From positions 243 to 64,242 of the forward strand of contig JBJEWF010000004.1 of the NCBI GenBank assembly GCA_051884915.1: a stretch of DNA of 64,000 nucleotides, read 5' to 3'. Of this stretch, positions 36,947 through 64,000 are shown piece after piece. This DNA comes from Kiritimatiellia bacterium (lineage in GTDB: Bacteria > Verrucomicrobiota > Kiritimatiellia > RFP12 > UBA1067). A program made the position numbers and the translations under genes. Every line of letters begins with the position of its first letter. The stretch's first letter is position 1. Under the pieces are notes generated by a model. It saw only the letters and a program-made list of their open reading frames with translations. It was not told where the DNA came from and made no database searches.

Positions 36947-37020
36947 GCGGGCGTAGCTCAATGGCAGAGCGTCGGCCTTCCAAGCCGATGACGAGGGTTC
37001 GATTCCCTTCGCCCGCTCCA
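36947..37020 (+). tRNA. tRNA-Gly (anticodon UCC)
   Basis: GCGGGCG acceptor stem pairs with CGCCCGC. Anticodon loop CUUCCAA. T-loop GGTTCGATTCC. 3' CCA encoded. 74 nt. Confidence 0.85.
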
Positions 37021-37048
37021 CGAACGGAAACGGGGAAGGCGTCTTCAG

Positions 37049-37134
37049 GCCGGAGTGGCGTAATGGCAGCCGCAGCAGACTCAAAATCTGCCGTACGCGA
37101 GTACGTGAGGGTTCGAGTCCCTCCTCCGGCACCA
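37049..37134 (+). tRNA. tRNA-Leu (anticodon CAA) with long variable arm
   Basis: GCCGGAG/CTCCGGC acceptor stem. Anticodon loop CUCAAAA. Long variable arm. GGTTCGAGTCC T-loop. CCA encoded. About 86 nt. Confidence 0.8.
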
Positions 37135-44340: not shown

Positions 44341-45582
44341 TCACGGCCACGTTGCCTCGTGGTGTAATGGTAGCACTGCAGATTCTGATTCTGCCTGTTG
44401 GGGTTCGAGTCCCTGCGAGGCAACCACTTCGCGGCCGTTTGTTTTTCCTCCCCCGTTCGCTTCCTCCCGCTCCCGGGAACGGCGCAGGGCGTCGAGCACG
44501 GCAAAGCCGCGCCGATCGGGCCAGCTCGTCACGTTCCGCAGGATGACGAGGATCGTCCGGTCGACGGGGTCGAAGCCGACGAAGGAGGAGCCGCCGTAGA
44601 TCATGCCCGCCCGGTAGAGGACGCGGCGCCCCGAGGGAAGGACCTTGACCCGCAGCAGCCCGAACACGGCATCGTCCGCGCAGGCGCCGATCGAACGCTC
44701 CGCCATTTGGGCGTCGACGATCTTCCAGTAGGCGGTGAACACCCGGGCGCAATCGGCAATCGACGAAAACAGGCCGCCTGTCGCCCGGAGCGCCGATCCG
44801 AGGCGATGGTCGGGAACGTCGTGTCCGCGGCGCGTCAACCAGGGCAGGCAGCCCGCCCGCGCCCGCGTCAGGCGGTTCGTGAACAGGGGTTCCGGTTCGT
44901 ATGTCGTGTCCTGCAGGCGCATGGGGCGGACGAGTTCGTCCCGGATCAGATCCTCCAGCGTCATGCCGAGCGCATCTTCGAGAACCGTGCCAAGAAGCCC
45001 GAATCCCACATTCGAGTAGACGTCCCGCTTGTCGCGAACGCACGCGCGCCACCAGGGACGCCAGGCCGTTTTCGCAAAATTCTCGCGCGAATCGAAGTCC
45101 CCGTAGATGTGGATTCCGGCGAGTCCGCAACGGAAACACGTCCACATGTCCCACGGCGTCCACGGCATCAGGAATTCGCGCGGCAGGCCCGAGCGGTTGT
45201 CCAGCAGATCGCGAAGCGTCACCGTTGCATATTCCGGCGGCAGCTCCAGCTTCGAGCAATCGCTCACCGGCCGGTCCAGATCGATCCGCCCGTTTTCGGC
45301 CAGTTCCAGAATGACCGGATGGAGAAACAGCTTCGAAAGCGAGGCCAGGCGAAAGAGCGCGTGTTCGTCCGCCGGGCCCGACCGGCCGTAGACGACGCCG
45401 TTTGTCGTCACATGGGCGACGACGCAGCATTCGTCGCCGAGATCCTGCACGTAGAAGTCCGCCGTGGCCTGGACGATCTCCCGCGGCGACCGGGCCGTCA
45501 GCAGACGATCGTCAAGCGTCCGGCAGCCTCCTGCCAGAAACGCCGAACAGCACGCGGCGAACAGCCAGTGGAAGAGCCGCAT
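44341..45582 (-). CDS. Lipoprotein serine hydrolase of the beta-lactamase/transpeptidase-like family
   Basis: Lipobox signal MRLFHWLFAACCSAFLAGGC and an SxxK motif (LASLSKLF). Last gene of the KS/KR/DH operon. The 3' ~85 nt is antisense to tRNA-Gln. Confidence 0.7.
   Translation of the reverse strand: MRLFHWLFAACCSAFLAGGCRTLDDRLLTARSPREIVQATADFYVQDLGDECCVVAHVTTNGVVYGRSGPADEHALFRLASLSKLFLHPVILELAENGRIDLDRPVSDCSKLELPPEYATVTLRDLLDNRSGLPREFLMPWTPWDMWTCFRCGLAGIHIYGDFDSRENFAKTAWRPWWRACVRDKRDVYSNVGFGLLGTVLEDALGMTLEDLIRDELVRPMRLQDTTYEPEPLFTNRLTRARAGCLPWLTRRGHDVPDHRLGSALRATGGLFSSIADCARVFTAYWKIVDAQMAERSIGACADDAVFGLLRVKVLPSGRRVLYRAGMIYGGSSFVGFDPVDRTILVILRNVTSWPDRRGFAVLDALRRSREREEANGGGKTNGREVVASQGLEPQQAESESAVLPLHHEATWP
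44353..44426 (+). tRNA. tRNA-Gln (anticodon CUG)
   Basis: TGCCTCG/CGAGGCA acceptor stem. Anticodon loop UUCUGAU. GGTTCGAGTCC T-loop. CCA encoded. 74 nt. Confidence 0.85.
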
Positions 45583-51734: not shown

Positions 51735-51790
51735 TGGTGCGACTGACTGGGATCGAACCAGCAACCTTCGGCTTCGGAGAACAAATCGGG
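51735..51790 (-). other. Orphan tRNA (or tmRNA) 3'-half fragment; putative attachment-site remnant at the prophage boundary
   Basis: Minus strand reads ...GGTTGCTGGTTCGATCCCAGTCAGTCGCACCA: T-stem-loop, 7-nt acceptor 3' strand, discriminator, CCA. No D-arm or complementary 5' acceptor strand upstream, so it is not an intact tRNA. Confidence 0.45.
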
Positions 51791-51830
51791 ACCGCGTTTT
51801 ATTGGAGAATAGCCCTACTGTGCATATTCT

Positions 51831-51840
51831 GTGCTATAAT
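51831..51840 (+). promoter_or_regulatory. Candidate extended -10 promoter (TGcTATAAT) upstream of the integrase gene
   Basis: gTGcTATAAT at 51831-51840. No good -35. Confidence 0.3.
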
Positions 51841-51916
51841 TGGCACCGTTAAGCGCGGAACTATACCATAGAAGGACATGGACACGCACGCGAGAGCAGA
51901 AACGGAGCGAAACGAA

Positions 51917-53059
51917 ATGAAACGGACAAACGGGAGCGGAACGCTCTACAGAAGGACGGGCAGCGACATCTGGTACACGAGAATCCTCATCGGCGGGAAA
52001 TGGGTGCGGAAGTCTACCGGCGAGACGGACCGCGCAAAGGCCGAGAAGATTCTGGACGAATACGCCACCGGCCACGACCTTCCAGACGACGCGCGGCTGG
52101 CGGCGGTCGAGGCGATCCTCAAGGCACGGCGCAGCCATTCGCCGACATTCGCCGAGGCATGGGACCTCTACACGCGCCACCCGAAGAACGCGGACCAGAG
52201 CCAGGGCGCGCAAGGAATCGACCTCGGACGCTGGCGCGTTTTCACCCGCTGGGCCGGAGGATATCAGGGCGGCGACCGTTGCCGAATCAACCAGGACGCC
52301 GCGCACCCGGAAGTCGAACGGCTCGAAGACGTGACCCAGGACATCGCAAGTGAGTTTGTCGCCTGGGCACGCGGAACGGTGTCACCGTCAACCGTCAACC
52401 GATACATCCGCGTCTGTCGCCGAATCTGGGACTTTGCGAAGGCCGAACGGAATCCCTGGGTGGACTTCCCTCACCTCAAGACGGACGCACAGAAGCGGAG
52501 ACGTCTCACGCCGGAAGAACTCACGCGGCTCATTGAATCGGCCACGGGCGAAATGCGGACGCTTTTCGTGATCGGAGCCTACACGGGACTCCGCCTGGGC
52601 GACGCGGCCCATGTGACCTGGGAACAAGTCGACGCGGCGGCTGGAATCATACGGCTACGCCCGCACAAGACGATCTACTCCGCCGGAACCTGGGTCCACC
52701 TGCCAATGCACCGCGTTCTCTCCCGCCAGCTCGGGAAGCCGAAGAAGCGCGGATACGTCACGCCCGAAATGGCGTCGTGGCCTCAATGGAAGTTGAGCGA
52801 CGCGGCCCAGGCCCACTTCGAGGTATGCGGACTTGCAGAAAGACGCAAGGCGGACGGCTACAAGCGCCACACGGCGGTCGTCGGTTTCCATTCGCTGCGG
52901 TCCACGTTCGTCTCTCTCATGGTGGACGCTGGCGTGCCGCTGGCCATCGTCCGGGCGCTTGTCGGACACGTCGACGAGGAGATCACCCTGCGCTACTACC
53001 GCATGGAGGAGGAGCGGGCACGGGCGGAAATCGACAAGCTGCCCGACTTCACGGCGTAA
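51917..53059 (+). CDS. int: Tyrosine-type site-specific integrase (phage integrase family)
   Basis: N-terminus MKRTNGSGTLYRR. C-terminal catalytic motifs HSLRSTFVSL...GH...LRYY. The ORF-track start at 51878 is an upstream extension. Confidence 0.9.
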   Translation: MKRTNGSGTLYRRTGSDIWYTRILIGGKWVRKSTGETDRAKAEKILDEYATGHDLPDDARLAAVEAILKARRSHSPTFAEAWDLYTRHPKNADQSQGAQGIDLGRWRVFTRWAGGYQGGDRCRINQDAAHPEVERLEDVTQDIASEFVAWARGTVSPSTVNRYIRVCRRIWDFAKAERNPWVDFPHLKTDAQKRRRLTPEELTRLIESATGEMRTLFVIGAYTGLRLGDAAHVTWEQVDAAAGIIRLRPHKTIYSAGTWVHLPMHRVLSRQLGKPKKRGYVTPEMASWPQWKLSDAAQAHFEVCGLAERRKADGYKRHTAVVGFHSLRSTFVSLMVDAGVPLAIVRALVGHVDEEITLRYYRMEEERARAEIDKLPDFTA

Positions 53060-53067
53060 AACCGCTT

Positions 53068-53277
53068 TCAGAGTTCAGACGGATCGATATCGGCGTCGCG
53101 CAGGATTTTACGGAGCAGCCCGACATGAAGCGGACGGGATCCGTGAGCGGGAACCGTGATCAGCGTCGCCACTCCGGGCTTTTTGAACTGCATATGGCTG
53201 CCGTCTTTCATGCGGGCAAGCGACCAGCCTCGAATATTCAGCTCATGGGCGAGCTGCCTGGCGTTCAACTGCTTCAT
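53068..53277 (-). CDS. hicA: HicA-family mRNA interferase toxin
   Basis: 69 aa. ...GWSLARMKDGSHMQFKKPG...TVP... matches the HicA (YcfA-like) signature. Confidence 0.8.
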   Translation of the reverse strand: MKQLNARQLAHELNIRGWSLARMKDGSHMQFKKPGVATLITVPAHGSRPLHVGLLRKILRDADIDPSEL

Positions 53278-53474
53278 ACGAGAACGCTGGCAACCTCGGC
53301 GCCGTCCGGGACCTCGAACGAGTTGAGGCCCTCAAGGTGGAAGCTGATCGCCTTGCGGAGATTCTCACGAAGCTCCTCAAGCGTGTCTCCGCTCGAATAG
53401 CACCCGGGCAGGGCCGGAACCTCAGCCCAGAAAGACCCGTCCTCGCGGCGGACTATGGCTTTGTACTGGCACAT
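53274..53474 (-). CDS. hicB: HicB-family antitoxin (short UPF0150-only form)
   Basis: 66 aa. ...EDGSFWAEVPALPGCYSSGDTLEELRENLRKAISFHLE matches the HicB N-domain. Overlaps hicA by 4 nt. Confidence 0.75.
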   Translation of the reverse strand: MCQYKAIVRREDGSFWAEVPALPGCYSSGDTLEELRENLRKAISFHLEGLNSFEVPDGAEVASVLV

Positions 53475-53689
53475 TGGATGGTTTATACCTCAGTTTCGAT
53501 TCTGTTCAGTTCGCAAAAAACGCGGCTATGATACCACAACCGAGGACGTGACGCAACCGGGACAAGCCCTGAAATCACCCACTCGGAACGCCCCGCCGAA
53601 CGCCCAGGAAAATGCTTCGCGGACACTTCGCGCGAAATATCGCAAAATGTTAATTATAGCTCTTGCACAGCGTACACAGCGCGATGCTT

Positions 53690-53729
53690 CGCAACCCTAA
53701 GTTTTTATAATATAAAAACTATAGGGTTG
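53690..53729. repeat. 40-bp near-perfect palindrome GCAACCCTAAGTTTTTATAAT/ATAAAAACTATAGGGTTGC in AT-rich non-coding DNA
   Basis: The arms are reverse complements apart from a 1-nt indel. AT-rich core contains TATAAT in both orientations. Confidence 0.6.
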
Positions 53730-54166
53730 CAAAGTATGCGCGCAAACTGTACCCCCACCCCTTAACTGTAAATTCAATATACGCAGTCGAGCACCCCTAC
53801 AGTACCCCTGGACTCCTACAGAACAGAACAACACAAGACGCTCACGGAAAAAGACCAACGGCAGCATGCCCCCCAACCCTACCCTTCCCACGCCCGGAGA
53901 TGCGTCGGCGTGGCTGCGAGGGCCTGAAAGATTCTCATGGGCGACACTTGACGGGCGGCGTCGCCGTGGTAGAAAGCACGAAGCAGGTCGCGGATCTTGC
54001 GTTTGCATGAAGCGCATCGACCTCATCCGCACAATTACCGAAAAATGCGCCGTATTTGTCCGCAATGGACACGACCACGACTGGTACCGAAATGTCGTGA
54101 CAGGCTGTCTTTCAGCCGTTCCACGCCACCGTTAGAGCGGTTGTAGAAAAAATATGAAAAAATCAT

Positions 54167-54195
54167 AAAAACCATATTGACGGTGTAAAACACCT
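54167..54195 (+). promoter_or_regulatory. Perfect sigma70 promoter TTGACG-N17-TATAAT with the 13-bp palindromic operator GGTGTAAAACACC occupying the spacer (operator copy O1, 54172-54184)
   Basis: -35 at 54167-54172, -10 at 54190-54195. An AGGA RBS and the first ribbon-helix-helix gene follow at 54239. Confidence 0.6.
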
Positions 54196-54238
54196 ATGGT
54201 ATAATACGCGCCACAAAGACCAAAACAGGAACATCAAA

Positions 54239-54427
54239 ATGCCGAACAAACGAAAGCAAGGAAAGAAGTTGGTAGCCGGATGGCTACAAAGTGGTGATGC
54301 CGAAGAGTTCAAGGATCGTGCCGCAGAATTGGGCATGACCACAACCGATTTGCTGACACTTCTAATCCGAGAGGAATTGAAGCGTAGCAACCGCACAAAC
54401 ACAAATCCAACCGAAAGGAATGCCTGA
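54239..54427 (+). CDS. Ribbon-helix-helix (CopG/Arc-like) DNA-binding protein 1
   Basis: 62 aa. ...AELGMTTTDLLTLLIREEL... matches the RHH helix pattern. Driven by the operator-containing promoter. Confidence 0.65.
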   Translation: MPNKRKQGKKLVAGWLQSGDAEEFKDRAAELGMTTTDLLTLLIREELKRSNRTNTNPTERNA

Positions 54428-54428
54428 A

Positions 54429-54600
54429 ATGGAAATGGAAATGCAAAACATCGAAGTGACCTTGTCCGACAAGGAAATCAAGGACTTCAACGAACTATGC
54501 GCCGAGCGCAATGTCTGCCCTGCGCAAAAAATAGGCGAACTGATACACGGGTTTATTTTGGCCGAGGGTGTAAAACACCAAATCAGAAAGACAGCATGAG
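54429..54600 (+). CDS. Ribbon-helix-helix-like small protein 2 (56 aa; absent from the ORF track because it is under 60 aa)
   Basis: MEMEMQNIEVTLSDKEIKDFNELCAERNVCPAQKIGELIHGFILAEGVKHQIRKTA has the beta-strand-then-two-helix RHH layout. Starts 2 nt after the RHH1 stop. Confidence 0.5.
54568..54580. promoter_or_regulatory. Operator copy O2 of the palindrome GGTGTAAAACACC (inside the 3' end of the second RHH ORF)
   Basis: Exact 13-bp repeat of the O1 sequence. Confidence 0.5.
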
Positions 54601-54618
54601 GTATTTTTTGACCGTGCG

Positions 54619-54631
54619 GTGTAAAACACCG
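54619..54631. promoter_or_regulatory. Operator copy O3 of the palindrome GGTGTAAAACACC, embedded in an extended inverted repeat CCGTGCGG...CCGCACGG
   Basis: Exact 13-bp repeat, 51 bp centre-to-centre from O2, immediately upstream of the RBS of the third RHH gene. Confidence 0.5.
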
Positions 54632-54663
54632 CCGCACGGCCTGAAACCTAACAGGAGCGGGAC

Positions 54664-54846
54664 ATGAGCGACGAGAAGATGATAAACGTGCCGCTGGACG
54701 ATGAGACGAAGTTCGTCCTTGAAACCAGCGCGAGGGAGAACGGACGCGCCGTAGGGCGCGAAGCCGCTATGCTGATAAAGCGCGGGCTTGCCTCATTCCG
54801 GCGCGGGCTGGAAGCGGCGGGCGCGTTGGAGCGGAAAGGCGCGTGA
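54664..54846 (+). CDS. Ribbon-helix-helix (Arc/MetJ-like) DNA-binding protein 3
   Basis: 60 aa. MINVPLDDETKFVLETSARENGRAVGREAAMLIKRGL. RBS AGGAG upstream. Confidence 0.65.
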   Translation: MSDEKMINVPLDDETKFVLETSARENGRAVGREAAMLIKRGLASFRRGLEAAGALERKGA

Positions 54847-54956: not shown

Positions 54957-55298
54957 ATGACAAACCCGAACTTCCCCGAACTCGAGATCGACTGCGCCCA
55001 CTGCGTCTTCGGCTGCAGCGCGATCCGTGCGAAGAACGTCAAAGAAGGTAACAAGAAATGGACGAAGAGACTAATCGAAATCTTTGAGTGCCGTATTTTC
55101 AGGCCATCTCAGACCTCATCCTTCCCCGAGATCAACATCAACGACTGGTGCGGGTACTTCTGCGACGCGGAGACACTGGCCCGCCCCTTCGTCGGGCTGA
55201 ACGCCGCCCCGAATGATCCCGCCAAGCTCCGCCACAAGCCCGTGCAGCCGCGAAAGATCCACGCGGAGGATCAGCCGCGAGAGGAGGTGGCCGAATGA
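54957..55298 (+). CDS. Cys-rich (zinc-finger-like) hypothetical phage protein
   Basis: Motifs CAHCVFGC...C...CGYFC. Start MTNPNFPE at 54957 with a GGAACCGAACCG RBS-like region. The ORF-track start at 54843 is an extension. Confidence 0.5.
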   Translation: MTNPNFPELEIDCAHCVFGCSAIRAKNVKEGNKKWTKRLIEIFECRIFRPSQTSSFPEININDWCGYFCDAETLARPFVGLNAAPNDPAKLRHKPVQPRKIHAEDQPREEVAE

Positions 55299-55456
55299 AG
55301 CCGGAGACCGTCGAGACGCTGAAGGAAGCCGTCGGCTGCGTGGCCGTGTTCATCATCTACGTCGTTCTGGCGTGGCTTTTCCTGACCGCGACGCCGCCGC
55401 AGTTTTCTGCCGAACGCGACCTTTGCGCCGAACAGATGGAAGGGATTGCGAAATGA
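55295..55456 (+). CDS. Small (53 aa) single-TM membrane protein, ATGA-coupled to both neighbours (not in ORF track)
   Basis: MKPETVETLKEAVGCVAVFIIYVVLAWLFLTATPPQF... The start overlaps the previous stop and the stop overlaps the next start. Confidence 0.4.
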   Translation: MKPETVETLKEAVGCVAVFIIYVVLAWLFLTATPPQFSAERDLCAEQMEGIAK

Positions 55457-55632: not shown

Positions 55633-55799
55633 TGGCAACCGAGAAGAAGCACTACCTTGTCGAGACGCACGTCGGCCCCCAGGAAACCTGGGCCACCTCT
55701 CCGAAGAAGGCAATCGCCCAGGTCCGCTACCGTCTCGTCGGCGGAGCGTTCGCCGGAACCTGCAGGACAACATACTGGACCGTGAAGGAGATCGCATGA
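55632..55799 (+). CDS. Small hypothetical protein (55 aa)
   Basis: MATEKKHYLVETHVGPQETWATSPKKAIAQVRYRLVGGAFAGTCRTTYWTVKEIA. TAATG overlap with the upstream gene and ATGA overlap with the downstream gene. Confidence 0.45.
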   Translation: MATEKKHYLVETHVGPQETWATSPKKAIAQVRYRLVGGAFAGTCRTTYWTVKEIA

Positions 55800-56098
55800 A
55801 GACCGCCGCCAACCTTCCAGACATCAAGTGCAAGTTCGACGCAATCGTCGACGCACTGGAACAGAAGATCCGCGAACTTCGGACCTTCGCCGCGGACAAC
55901 CTGGCGCAGCCAGTCGCAGTCAACGGCGCGACGGAACAGATTATCAGCGTCGCGGACGCAGCCGAGGTCCTCTCGAAGTCTACGAAGACCGTCCTCCGCT
56001 ATTGCCGCGCCGGAAGTCTCAAGGCGTACAAGGCCCCAGGCGCGAAGCTCACGACGGGCGTCTACCTCTCGTCGCTGAACGCCCTGCTGAACGATTAA
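55796..56098 (+). CDS. HTH DNA-binding protein (excisionase/MerR-like HTH)
   Basis: ...ISVADAAEVLSKSTKTVLRYCRAGSLKAYK is a helix-turn-helix typical of Xis/AlpA-like proteins. 100 aa. Confidence 0.55.
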   Translation: MKTAANLPDIKCKFDAIVDALEQKIRELRTFAADNLAQPVAVNGATEQIISVADAAEVLSKSTKTVLRYCRAGSLKAYKAPGAKLTTGVYLSSLNALLND

Positions 56099-56114: not shown

Positions 56115-56498
56115 ATGCAGATGCACACGAACAACATCTTGAAGGAAATCCGACAGGAGAAAATCGGGAAGTGGCTCCAGGCGGTGAAGAAGAACACCGA
56201 CCTGCTGCTGGCGTTCCCCGTCGATCCGGTCGAGCACGAGGCCGTGGCCGAATTCCGGGAGAGCGTCGCTTACAAGATCGGCTGGCTTTCCGAGTACCTG
56301 GCGACGGGCAAGTGGAACTTCTTCGCCGATCAGAACATCGGAAGCCCGATGACGATCCAGATCGACGCCGAACGCGCCGAGGAACCCCACGACGAAGCCT
56401 CCGACGCCGAACGCGCCGCCGCAATGGACGCGGCGACGGAAGCCGAAGCCGCCGAGGAAGCCGCCCTGGCCCAGGCGAAGCAGGAAGCGGAGGCGTGA
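56115..56498 (+). CDS. Hypothetical phage protein with acidic Ala/Glu-rich C-terminus
   Basis: 127 aa. No recognisable motif. Confidence 0.45.
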   Translation: MQMHTNNILKEIRQEKIGKWLQAVKKNTDLLLAFPVDPVEHEAVAEFRESVAYKIGWLSEYLATGKWNFFADQNIGSPMTIQIDAERAEEPHDEASDAERAAAMDAATEAEAAEEAALAQAKQEAEA

Positions 56499-62808: not shown

Positions 62809-64000
62809 CGCAGAAACGCGAGAAGCGTGACCTCCGGCGCGAAGCCGAACTCGCCGTAATTGGGAGCCTTCTGACACCCACGACACAAGAGGCCACAATC
62901 AAGGCCATCAAGCGCAGCAGCCTGGGAGCCGACTCGTTCGCCACACGCGACACCGCAGCCGCTTTCGCGCAGATCCTCATCGACGCGAAGTCCGAATGGG
63001 GAATCATGGACACCTCCGCCGAAGCCATCGGAAGGGACCTGGCGACCGCAAAGGCGCTGGCGAGAATCGGCAAGGAGAAGGAAGCCGTCGAGAAGGTCGT
63101 GGACAACGCACGCCAGGAGAAGCTCTTCACCACCATCCAGGGCATCACGGACAAGGTGGCCAACTACCCGAACGCCATCCAGGCGGGACGGGCGCTCCAG
63201 GACGCGCTCAAGCGGTTCGAGCGCGACGCGCAGAAGCTGAACAAGCCGAAGGGACGACTTCTCGGCTCATACGACTACCCAGGCCCCGACGAAGAGGACG
63301 ACCACTGCCTCTTCCAGAACCGCTACCTCCGCAGGGGAATGGCCGGAATGATCGTCGCCGGCTCCGGCGTCGGAAAGTCGGTCGTGTCGATCCAACTCGC
63401 CTACCATTGGGCGGTCGGCAAGACGTGCCTGGGAATCACGCCCACGAAGAAGACCGCCGCGACCTGCAAGGCGGGACGGAGCCTCCCGGACGGCGGAATG
63501 AAGATCGCCATCTTCCAGAGCGAGGACGACGAGTACGATATGCAGAACTTCCGGCGCGGCATCACGAACGGACTCATCGCAGACGGCTGGACGAGCGAGG
63601 AGATCAAGCTGGCGGAGAGCCGCGTGTCGTGCTATGGAATCGACGAAATCGGCGGCCAGGACATCTTCTCGTTCATGAGCGCGGTCCAGGACGATGAACT
63701 GTTCGACATGGCGTTCATCAACCCGCTCTTCGGATTCTACGAAGGCGACATCAAGGACAACGAGGAGGCGCGGCGTTGGCTGCGTGGCGGTCTCGACCCG
63801 CTCATCAAACGCGCCGGCAAGGAATTCGGGTGCTGGATTGTCCACCACACCCCGAAGCCGAAGCTCGACGACCTCAAGGACGGCGGCAACGTCTTCGCCG
63901 CCTACATAGGCAACGGAGCCTCCGAATTCACGAACTACCCCCGAGTTACGCTAGCCTTCGTGCCATGGAAGAGCGCGGCCCGTGGCAGCGTGCCGAGCCG
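62805..64000 (+). CDS. DnaB/RepA-like replicative helicase (RecA-fold NTPase), partial; continues beyond the window
   Basis: Open frame from ATG 62805 to the window end. N-terminal DnaB-like helical domain, Walker A GSGVGKS, then a Walker-B-like ...DMAFINPL segment. Absent from the ORF track because there is no stop in the window. Confidence 0.65.
   Translation, partial: MTQKREKRDLRREAELAVIGSLLTPTTQEATIKAIKRSSLGADSFATRDTAAAFAQILIDAKSEWGIMDTSAEAIGRDLATAKALARIGKEKEAVEKVVDNARQEKLFTTIQGITDKVANYPNAIQAGRALQDALKRFERDAQKLNKPKGRLLGSYDYPGPDEEDDHCLFQNRYLRRGMAGMIVAGSGVGKSVVSIQLAYHWAVGKTCLGITPTKKTAATCKAGRSLPDGGMKIAIFQSEDDEYDMQNFRRGITNGLIADGWTSEEIKLAESRVSCYGIDEIGGQDIFSFMSAVQDDELFDMAFINPLFGFYEGDIKDNEEARRWLRGGLDPLIKRAGKEFGCWIVHHTPKPKLDDLKDGGNVFAAYIGNGASEFTNYPRVTLAFVPWKSAARGSVPS

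Follow-up and report, generated by a model that had tools for sequence, protein, structure and literature searches.

What do three exact copies of one 13-bp sequence do at the head of a prophage operon, and which protein reads them? This question is raised by a 64,000-nt stretch of DNA from a Kiritimatiellia bacterium (Verrucomicrobiota; NCBI GenBank assembly GCA_051884915.1, contig JBJEWF010000004.1, positions 243 to 64,242 of the forward strand), referred to below as the window. About 12 kb of the window is prophage, which runs on past position 64000. The 13-mer, GGTGTAAAACACC, occurs at three sites, O1, O2 and O3, around two small genes, A and B, and ahead of a third, C (Table 1). An initial annotation of the same DNA described the copies as a palindromic operator organising three tandem ribbon-helix-helix (RHH) genes, and proposed either an immunity-type switch or an antitoxin-type circuit. 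The present analysis points, with fair confidence, to operators of the Arc/CopG type for the products of A and B, which would serve as a self-regulated immunity module in the leading position of the early lytic operon.

A scan of the window confirmed the three exact copies, each on the + strand, and found no further copy when up to two mismatches were allowed. Given the base composition, 0.00035 exact 13-mers and 0.07 matches to GGTGT-N3-ACACC are expected per window by chance. The element is an imperfect palindrome, in which the GGTGT and ACACC arms are symmetric as first described but the AAA centre is not. O1 had been placed 10 bp too low, and O2 and O3 were each 1 bp off; the O2-O3 distance of 51 bp stands, and the O1-O2 distance is 385 bp rather than about 396 bp. 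O1 shares its first G with the -35 hexamer of the early promoter and fills the spacer, followed by TATGG and then TATAAT. This promoter had been called perfect; its N17 spacer and TATAAT hold, and a consensus scan gives 11/12 matches with an extended -10, which makes it near-consensus. O2 and O3 do flank the stop codon of B (54597-54599), O2 lying 18 nt 5' and O3 19 nt 3' of it, and the longer inverted repeat reported around O3 is real (CCGTGCGG/CCGCACGG).

Three sites at fixed positions in related loci

Nineteen contigs carrying homologues of A were examined, which are short metagenomic contigs, and 12 non-redundant loci fall in the class with the 13-mer. The three sites keep their positions in these 12 non-redundant relatives, whose A proteins are 61-85% identical. 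In these relatives, the spacer that holds O1 belongs to a TTGAC/TTGCG...TGGTAnnnT promoter located 40-83 bp 5' of A, O2 lies at about +313 from the A start codon in the last codons of B, and O3 lies 45-79 bp beyond O2, past the B stop. Anchored alignments give 1.85 bits per column at O1 against 0.62 in its flanks, 1.92 against 0.92 at O2, and 2.00 against 0.35 at O3. Only GGTG-N5-CACC is invariant across at least 12 loci, around a variable, A/T-rich centre (TAAAA, TATAA, TTAAA, CAATG or TAAAG). The invariance of the 13-mers at the three corresponding positions, amid flanks that have decayed, makes it probable that they are genuine protein-binding operators.

The coding context of O2 provides a further line of evidence. 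Across the 12 loci, the codons that make up O2 are frozen: Gly is GGT in 12/12, Lys is AAA in 11/11 and His is CAC in 12/12. Conserved residues just upstream use their codons freely, with two Gly columns split 3/3/3/3 and 1/6/2/1, His written as CAC in 8 and CAT in 3, and Lys as AAA in 7 and AAG in 4. Frozen codons next to free ones indicate that selection at O2 acts on the DNA, beyond the protein.

Variants of the layout are found as well. In L028 and L029 (loci are numbered L016 to L045 where they need to be told apart), O1 reads GGTGCAATGCACC, a symmetric change in both arms that leaves the dyad intact. O2 of L016 is the reverse complement of its O1, and in L020 the same centre variant is present in both O1 and O2. 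A comparison of L032 (2320-2345) with L033 (1031-1110) reveals a deletion that brings the left half of O2 up against the sequence flanking O3 on its right, with the B C-terminus and both downstream sites gone; it looks like a repeat-mediated event between direct copies. In L026, O1 has one mismatch (GGTGTAAAGCACC) within the same promoter, B is truncated, and O2 and O3 are lost. This locus also carries a HicA-like gene and a 147-aa gene, a toxin-antitoxin-like cassette, between the promoter and A, so that the cassette would be driven by the operator-controlled promoter.

Exchange of the sites together with the regulator pair

Sibling prophages carry homologues of C that are 70-93% identical (93% in L039, 70-76% in L034-L038 and L044), in the gene order integrase, divergent gene, two small genes, C, HTH_17, PD-(D/E)XK nuclease and AAA_24. 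They have different RHH-like A/B pairs and lack the 13-mer. Each repeats a site sequence of its own at these three positions, which gives six operator classes in total. The sites of the five other classes are GGTGTAGTGTCACC in L034/35, GGTTTATATAAACC in L037/38, AGGTTGAATCACCC in L039, GGTTCAACCAACC in L036 and GGTGATAACACC in L044/45. Asymmetric operators occur in L039 and L036, and in L039 the orientation of O1 is opposite to that of O2 and O3. The window and L034 share the same A type and the GGTG/CACC boxes, with B proteins that look unrelated.

The surroundings of O1 hardly change among the six classes. The near-identical scaffold consists of GAAAAAATATGAAAAAAT, 19 nt, ATTGAC, the site and TGTGGTATAAT, and only the filling of the spacer is swapped; in related loci it recurs as TTGAC/TTGCG, site, TGTGGTAtAAT. 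The GAAAAAATATGAAAAAAT block is near-identical in the window, L034, L036, L037, L039 and L044, always 19 nt before ATTGAC/ATTGCR, and probably serves as an UP element or as a target of a shared factor. As a separate observation, this block is kept among prophages whose regulator genes have unrelated sequence.

The site sequence changes together with the A/B pair and with no other gene, and recombination in this swap has its boundaries close around A, B and the three sites. Different genes follow O3 within the 13-mer class, and they are usually non-RHH. The divergent neighbours vary too, being HicAB, unrelated genes of 71 and 125 aa or of 199 aa, or nothing. These patterns mark the promoter with O1, A, B (with O2) and O3 as the conserved unit. 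Since C is found 70-93% identical behind other A/B pairs without the 13-mer, it cannot set the specificity, and the comparison assigns the sites to the A/B pair. A site and its regulator pair exchanged within a constant scaffold are the signature of a phage immunity region; the A/B module would then be an exchangeable immunity cassette, and the immunity-type role suggested at the outset fits this exchange.

The initial annotation held instead that the sites organise three tandem RHH genes, which would make C a binder, or that they belong to an antitoxin-type circuit. All three proteins are RHH-like, and O3 lies just 5' of the ribosome-binding site of C. However, the conserved unit ends at O3, the genes that follow O3 in most 13-mer loci are not RHH genes, and the C homologues of L039, L034-L038 and L044 stand behind other pairs and other sites. 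No toxin family is matched by A, B, C or the next open reading frames, and HicAB, which is encoded on the opposite strand and missing from many relatives, is separate and variable cargo rather than a toxin partner. Both versions are very unlikely. Three small open reading frames on the + strand are indeed present; the RHH assignment is backed by Pfam matches across the family for C, and is suggested for A and B by predicted fold and sub-threshold matches.

One boundary can be examined more closely. The CCGTGCGG/CCGCACGG repeat that encloses O3 in the window is nearly unchanged around O3 of L044 (L044 2446-2475), where the same gene C follows and the enclosed operator core is GGTGATAACACC. The repeat was not found around O3 in other 13-mer loci. 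A recombination boundary seems to lie right at the operator between the window and L044.

A role in RNA is also to be considered, in which GGUGU-AAA-ACACC hairpins, or a larger hairpin at O3, would act in translational control, processing or termination. Both O2 and O3 fall within the transcript, a 5-bp hairpin is possible, and in the palindromic classes folding of the O2-O3 interval exceeds that of shuffled sequence; in many loci the next start codon comes 14-33 nt from O3. However, O1 sits between the -35 and -10 elements, outside the transcript, and the non-palindromic classes have no significant structure (z +0.5 in L039 and -0.26 in L036). Orientation flips, as in O1 of L039 and O2 of L016, no T-run follows the hairpins on either strand, and no Rfam family is matched. 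An RNA-level role is hardly credible.

Candidate readers of the site

Operators of Arc and CopG consist of two inverted 4-bp boxes 5 bp apart, forming a 13-bp symmetric element over the promoter with one dimer on each half (PMC2724298). GGTG-N5-CACC has this arrangement and, at O1, overlaps the promoter. An RHH tetramer at O1, with one dimer per half-site, would block RNA polymerase at a strong promoter with a putative UP element, a -35 and an extended -10. A/B would thereby limit their own production as well as expression of the genes further along, for C, an excisionase-like protein, Erf, exonuclease and RusA. Autoregulation is proposed because a tetramer on this site would occlude the promoter whose first gene is A. 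On the 5' side of the promoter are a tyrosine integrase (51878-53059) and, on the opposite strand, HicA/HicB; on the 3' side are an HTH_17 excisionase-like gene, an Erf annealing protein, an exonuclease, a cytosine methyltransferase and RusA. The integrase upstream, with Erf, exonuclease, methyltransferase and RusA downstream, identifies the locus as the head of the early operon of a temperate Kiritimatiellia prophage.

The CopG/Pcr system of plasmid pMV158 is comparable in that a small RHH protein is the first gene of a repressed operon and is co-transcribed with downstream genes; copG is transcribed with repB from the promoter that CopG represses (PMC2724298). Its 13-bp pseudo-symmetric element, with two inverted 4-bp boxes 5 bp apart, has the geometry seen here (PMC2724298), and the A-position protein of L039 exceeds the Pfam cut-off for RHH_1, the CopG family. 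In contrast to the plasmid replication operon of CopG, the present locus is a prophage early operon with no RepB, has a second RHH-like gene, B, and carries two more full sites about 385 and 436 bp downstream, one of them in coding sequence. In addition, the site lies in the spacer, whereas that of CopG is centred on the -35, and A reaches no Pfam RHH threshold.

Arc, at Pant/Pmnt in the immI region of phage P22, is a phage RHH repressor made from the first gene of an operon that is shut down, and its 13-bp symmetric element is bound by two dimers. The Arc operator governs two divergent, overlapping promoters (PMC2724298), and a divergent promoter-like site overlaps O1 in the window. One repressor on O1 could, by analogy with Arc, control both directions. 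Minus-strand hexamers resembling TTTACA-16-TATGAT were noticed by eye in several relatives. Unlike Arc, the locus has three sites rather than one and A and B have no sequence similarity to it; the role here would probably be primary control of the early operon, not that of a secondary immunity region. Open reading frames 54957-55298, 55295-55456, 55796-56098 and 56115-56498 gave no match to Ant in Pfam or PHROGs, and no Mnt homologue was found, the divergent genes being HicB and HicA.

Between the two proteins of the pair, A is the likelier reader of the bases, a preference that we hold with modest confidence. It has 30 homologues (61-100% identity), found in metagenomes or metagenome-assembled genomes only, and an invariant basic N-terminal arm, MPNKRKxGKK, followed by the strand LVAGWL. 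In the 12 loci, the core of A has a pairwise identity of 77% (minimum 65%), and MPNKRKxGKKLVAGWL is invariant or conservatively substituted. B has 10 homologues, and its core has a pairwise identity of 55% (minimum 31%); its predicted ribbon varies at 8/9 columns, often with Glu, Asp or Pro. A is favoured because its basic arm and strand are as invariant as the site, whereas B is acidic (isoelectric point 5.2 in the window class) with a variable ribbon. B is more likely a partner or modulator.

The predicted structures of both proteins suggest an RHH-like fold. AlphaFold2 monomers have an extended N-terminal segment followed by two helices, with a mean predicted local distance difference test score of 77.7 for A and 89.3 for B and a strand assigned in neither. 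Foldseek searches of the PDB with A and B list mostly RHH proteins, such as ParG, PutA, CopG, Arc, AmrZ, AtaR and CopA_SO. The top neighbours of B are ParG, YiiF, StnY, CopG, Arc and AmrZ; the alignments of A span 33-43 columns at a root-mean-square deviation of 1.1-1.9 A, with top-match E-values of 0.8-9. A profile comparison of A with B aligned them in RHH register and was not significant (probability 5%). For C, the window protein scores E 0.0019 and 18.7 bits against Pfam TraY (cut-off 21.3); within its family, 15/19 homologues match TraY (best 1e-5) and 10/19 match a FitA-like RHH (best 1.9e-5).

The overlap of the two genes, and the asymmetry of the operators in some classes, suggest an A-B hetero-oligomer as a live alternative. 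The corresponding rival holds that B or the hetero-oligomer, a 'split TraY', reads the site and A alone does not. A and B overlap or abut in all loci and are likely to be translationally coupled, which would give equal amounts of the two proteins, and each of them changes along with the operator class. With a mixed ribbon, the asymmetry of the L039 and L036 operators would be accounted for; O1 of L039 is also inverted. Furthermore, O2 is always embedded in B, and the loss of B in L026 coincides with the loss of O2 and O3 and the mutation of O1. The acidity of the window-class B and the variation of its ribbon against an invariant site speak against this proposal, which is unlikely on balance.

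A third candidate is a separate lysogeny repressor, encoded elsewhere in the prophage, either beyond the window or in the divergent position, that binds the 13-mers and leaves A as a Cro-like competitor. In lambdoid phages, CI and Cro share operators, and the proposal matches that logic. Bistability does not obviously follow from a self-repressing operon on its own, the prophage extends past 64000, and sibling loci have an uncharacterised gene of 142-210 aa in the divergent 'cI position'. However, the divergent slot varies within the 13-mer class and offers no conserved candidate beside the sites, the divergent proteins match no HTH, CI, S24 or other DNA-binding Pfam domain, and the boundaries of the swap enclose A/B and the three sites. 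A separate repressor is rather improbable.

Several points nevertheless weigh against reading A/B as the autoregulators of these sites. The Pfam matches of both proteins are below threshold, A to Antitox_RHH at E 0.13 (12.8 bits, cut-off 27.2) and B to RHH_9 at E 0.022 (15.1 bits, cut-off 23.4), and the A and B profiles matched no solved RHH structure by sequence. All Foldseek E-values for A and B are >0.1, as expected for a domain of about 45 residues. The choice of A over B as reader is drawn entirely from conservation, and L026, which keeps A and the promoter while losing B, O2 and O3, is equally compatible with B as an important partner. The O1-O2 spacing ranges over 353-421 bp, and neither O1-O2 nor O2-O3 is phased, which gives no positive support for looping. 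Finally, a self-repressing operon alone leaves stable lysogeny unexplained: A/B would either hold lysogeny alone or act as a Cro-like early brake beside a repressor encoded past 64000.

Downstream sites, known systems and the wider locus

Why are there two further sites beyond the promoter? In every class, O2 and O3 separate the regulator genes from the remainder of the early operon. Their spacing is 45-79 bp within the 13-mer class and 24-61 bp in the other classes, so the suggestion that they are set five helical turns apart fails. A T-run ends 6-14 nt (mostly 7-12) before O2 in 16/16 tabulated loci from five classes, and in the sixth class, in L044, by reading. Before O3, a T-run ends at 7-12 nt in 13/16 loci, compared with a background of 1.4% for T4 or longer at that distance. 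Taken together, the runs are 3-8 bases long and end 6-12 nt before O2 and O3 in most loci of all six classes, and at O2 the Phe and Leu codons are always TTT or TTG, with Phe TTT in 12/12 loci. Short GC hairpins precede the T-tract in some loci only. Candidate explanations for the T-tracts are roadblock-assisted termination, contact with the minor groove and duplicated flanks.

Judged from roadblock footprints, the RNA 3' end of a polymerase stalled against a site-bound protein would lie roughly at the position of the U-tract. The position of the T-tracts together with this footprint suggests roadblock-assisted release. A/B bound at O2 and O3 might then act as a gate, keeping transcription out of the lytic genes without halting the production of A and B, a reading that is plausible though short of probable. 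As the main, slightly more tentative alternative, O2 and O3 would be auxiliary sites that strengthen repression at O1 by cooperative looping, for which CI of TP901-1 with OR, OL and OD (PMC7250872) and lac O1/O2 offer parallels. A fuller proposal, which remains speculative and doubtful, is a switch with a single promoter and no CI, in which a coupled RHH pair, possibly a heterodimer, would repress the early promoter, stall polymerase on the T-tracts and be exchanged as a cassette. If true, one operon would supply both immunity and the gate to lytic development. Two other candidates for the downstream sites were rejected: a second promoter, since a TTG-type hexamer precedes the sites yet no -10 follows them in any class, and an intrinsic terminator at the O3 hairpin, since the T-run precedes the hairpin and none comes after it on either strand.

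Other known systems share parts of this layout. In phage TP901-1, a compact switch holds the immune state with three copies of a site, OR, OL and OD, for one repressor, CI (PMC7250872). That CI is a helix-turn-helix hexamer, divergent from the lytic promoter and antagonised by MOR, whereas the regulators here are RHH-like and lie inside the repressed operon; the locus has no divergent HTH/S24 repressor of the lambdoid or TP901-1 type, and no divergent repressor gene is conserved. Reg576, from the establishment genes of plasmid p576, is an RHH autoregulator of which two dimers bind cooperatively to short repeated motifs, some in promoter spacers and some just 5' of ribosome-binding sites (PMC6294495). 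Its operators are 7-bp direct repeats, found at four separate promoters on a conjugative plasmid, where the present locus has one promoter and two downstream sites.

For the downstream sites, the stoperators of cluster A mycobacteriophages offer a functional analogy only. There, an operator at the early promoter is joined by repressor sites within transcribed regions, which stop elongating polymerase (PMC9283540). Stoperators are numerous and asymmetric, lie across the genome in one orientation relative to transcription, and are bound by a monomeric two-domain HTH repressor. Here there are three sites only in the window, two of them downstream, the regulators are RHH-like, and orientation is not conserved (L039, L016). 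The lac operon likewise combines a promoter operator with an auxiliary copy in coding sequence, with distances that vary over 353-421 bp in the present loci. Its O2 lies in lacZ about 400 bp downstream of O1, LacI is a tetrameric HTH protein, and looping has been demonstrated.

Table 1. Features of the regulatory module in the window (positions are those of the 64,000-nt stretch)
Feature	Position	Strand	Description and basis
A-rich upstream element	54146-54163	+	GAAAAAATATGAAAAAAT; UP-element position; in the promoter scaffold of all operator classes
Divergent promoter-like site	54162-54189	-	TTTACA-16-TATGAT; -35 inside O1; 10/12 in consensus scan; function putative
Early promoter	54177-54205	+	-35 TTGACG 54177-54182, 17-bp spacer, TG 54197-54198, -10 TATAAT 54200-54205
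O1	54182-54194	+	GGTGTAAAACACC; putative primary operator in promoter spacer; motif scan and conservation in relatives
Gene A	54239-54427	+	62 aa; RHH-like by predicted fold
Gene B	54420 or 54429 to 54599	+	56-59 aa; acidic; RHH-like by predicted fold; last codons hold O2
T-tract before O2	54552-54559	+	TTTATTTT; ends 7 nt 5' of O2; Phe/Ile/Leu codons
O2	54567-54579	+	GGTGTAAAACACC; within gene B, codes G-V-K-H; motif scan and frozen synonymous sites
T6 tract	54604-54609	+	3' of B stop, 8 nt before O3
8-bp inverted repeat	54612-54639	+	CCGTGCGG 54612-54619 / CCGCACGG 54632-54639; encloses O3
O3	54618-54630	+	GGTGTAAAACACC; B-C intergenic, 33 nt 5' of C start codon
Gene C	54664-54846	+	60 aa; TraY/FitA-like RHH; first gene downstream of the module

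Upstream of the module, HicA (53068-53277) and HicB (53274-53474), both on the - strand, occupy the slot between the integrase and the early promoter, and a pair of this kind fills that slot in several relatives (L016, L032, L033 and L026). A 42-aa open reading frame (54009-54135, +) just 5' of the promoter, MKRIDLIRTITEKCAVFVRNGHDHDWYRNVVTGCLSAVPRHR, was judged by eye to resemble a truncated toxin of the HicA type and has no Pfam match. The 700-bp gene-poor gap from hicB to the promoter contains an AT-rich imperfect hairpin (53684-53737) with 23-nt arms that are 78% complementary and a core of AGTTTTTATA-A-TATAAAAACT at 53700-53720; Rfam gives only sub-threshold miRNA-type matches for it. Genes for tRNA-Gly(TCC), tRNA-Leu(CAA) and tRNA-Gln(CTG) lie at 36947-37134 and 44353-44426. 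None adjoins the integrase, and the attachment site, near 51750-51870, is hence not an obvious tRNA gene.

How widely is the module distributed? Among 50,697 GenBank phage records, blastn with the region and tblastn with A and C found no relative. Searches of IMG/VR with the A alignment, the C alignment and the promoter-scaffold pattern returned nothing related, the four pattern matches being AT-rich unrelated phages. An 18-mer made of TTGACG and the site gave 14 single, scattered matches in unrelated phyla in a collection of genome contigs; about 17 are expected by chance, and these matches were discarded.

RHH autoregulators with 13-bp symmetric operators are textbook knowledge. New here are the paired, coupled RHH-like genes, the fixed three-site layout with an operator in the last codons of a regulator gene, the T-tract rule, and six interchangeable specificities in phages of an uncultured lineage. 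Phage regulation in Kiritimatiellia has hitherto been uncharted, and the locus provides a compact module that comprises three sites, one promoter and two genes, each of about 60 codons. It also shows clearly how an operator constrains codons in the very regulator gene that contains it. The six operators, set in one scaffold with a regulator pair for each, amount to a natural swap experiment that points to an orthogonal set of repressors and operators, and make the module a good case for working out the recognition rules of RHH proteins. If the downstream sites and T-tracts do stop transcription, these phages would have an unusual one-promoter way to keep the repressor on and the lytic genes off.

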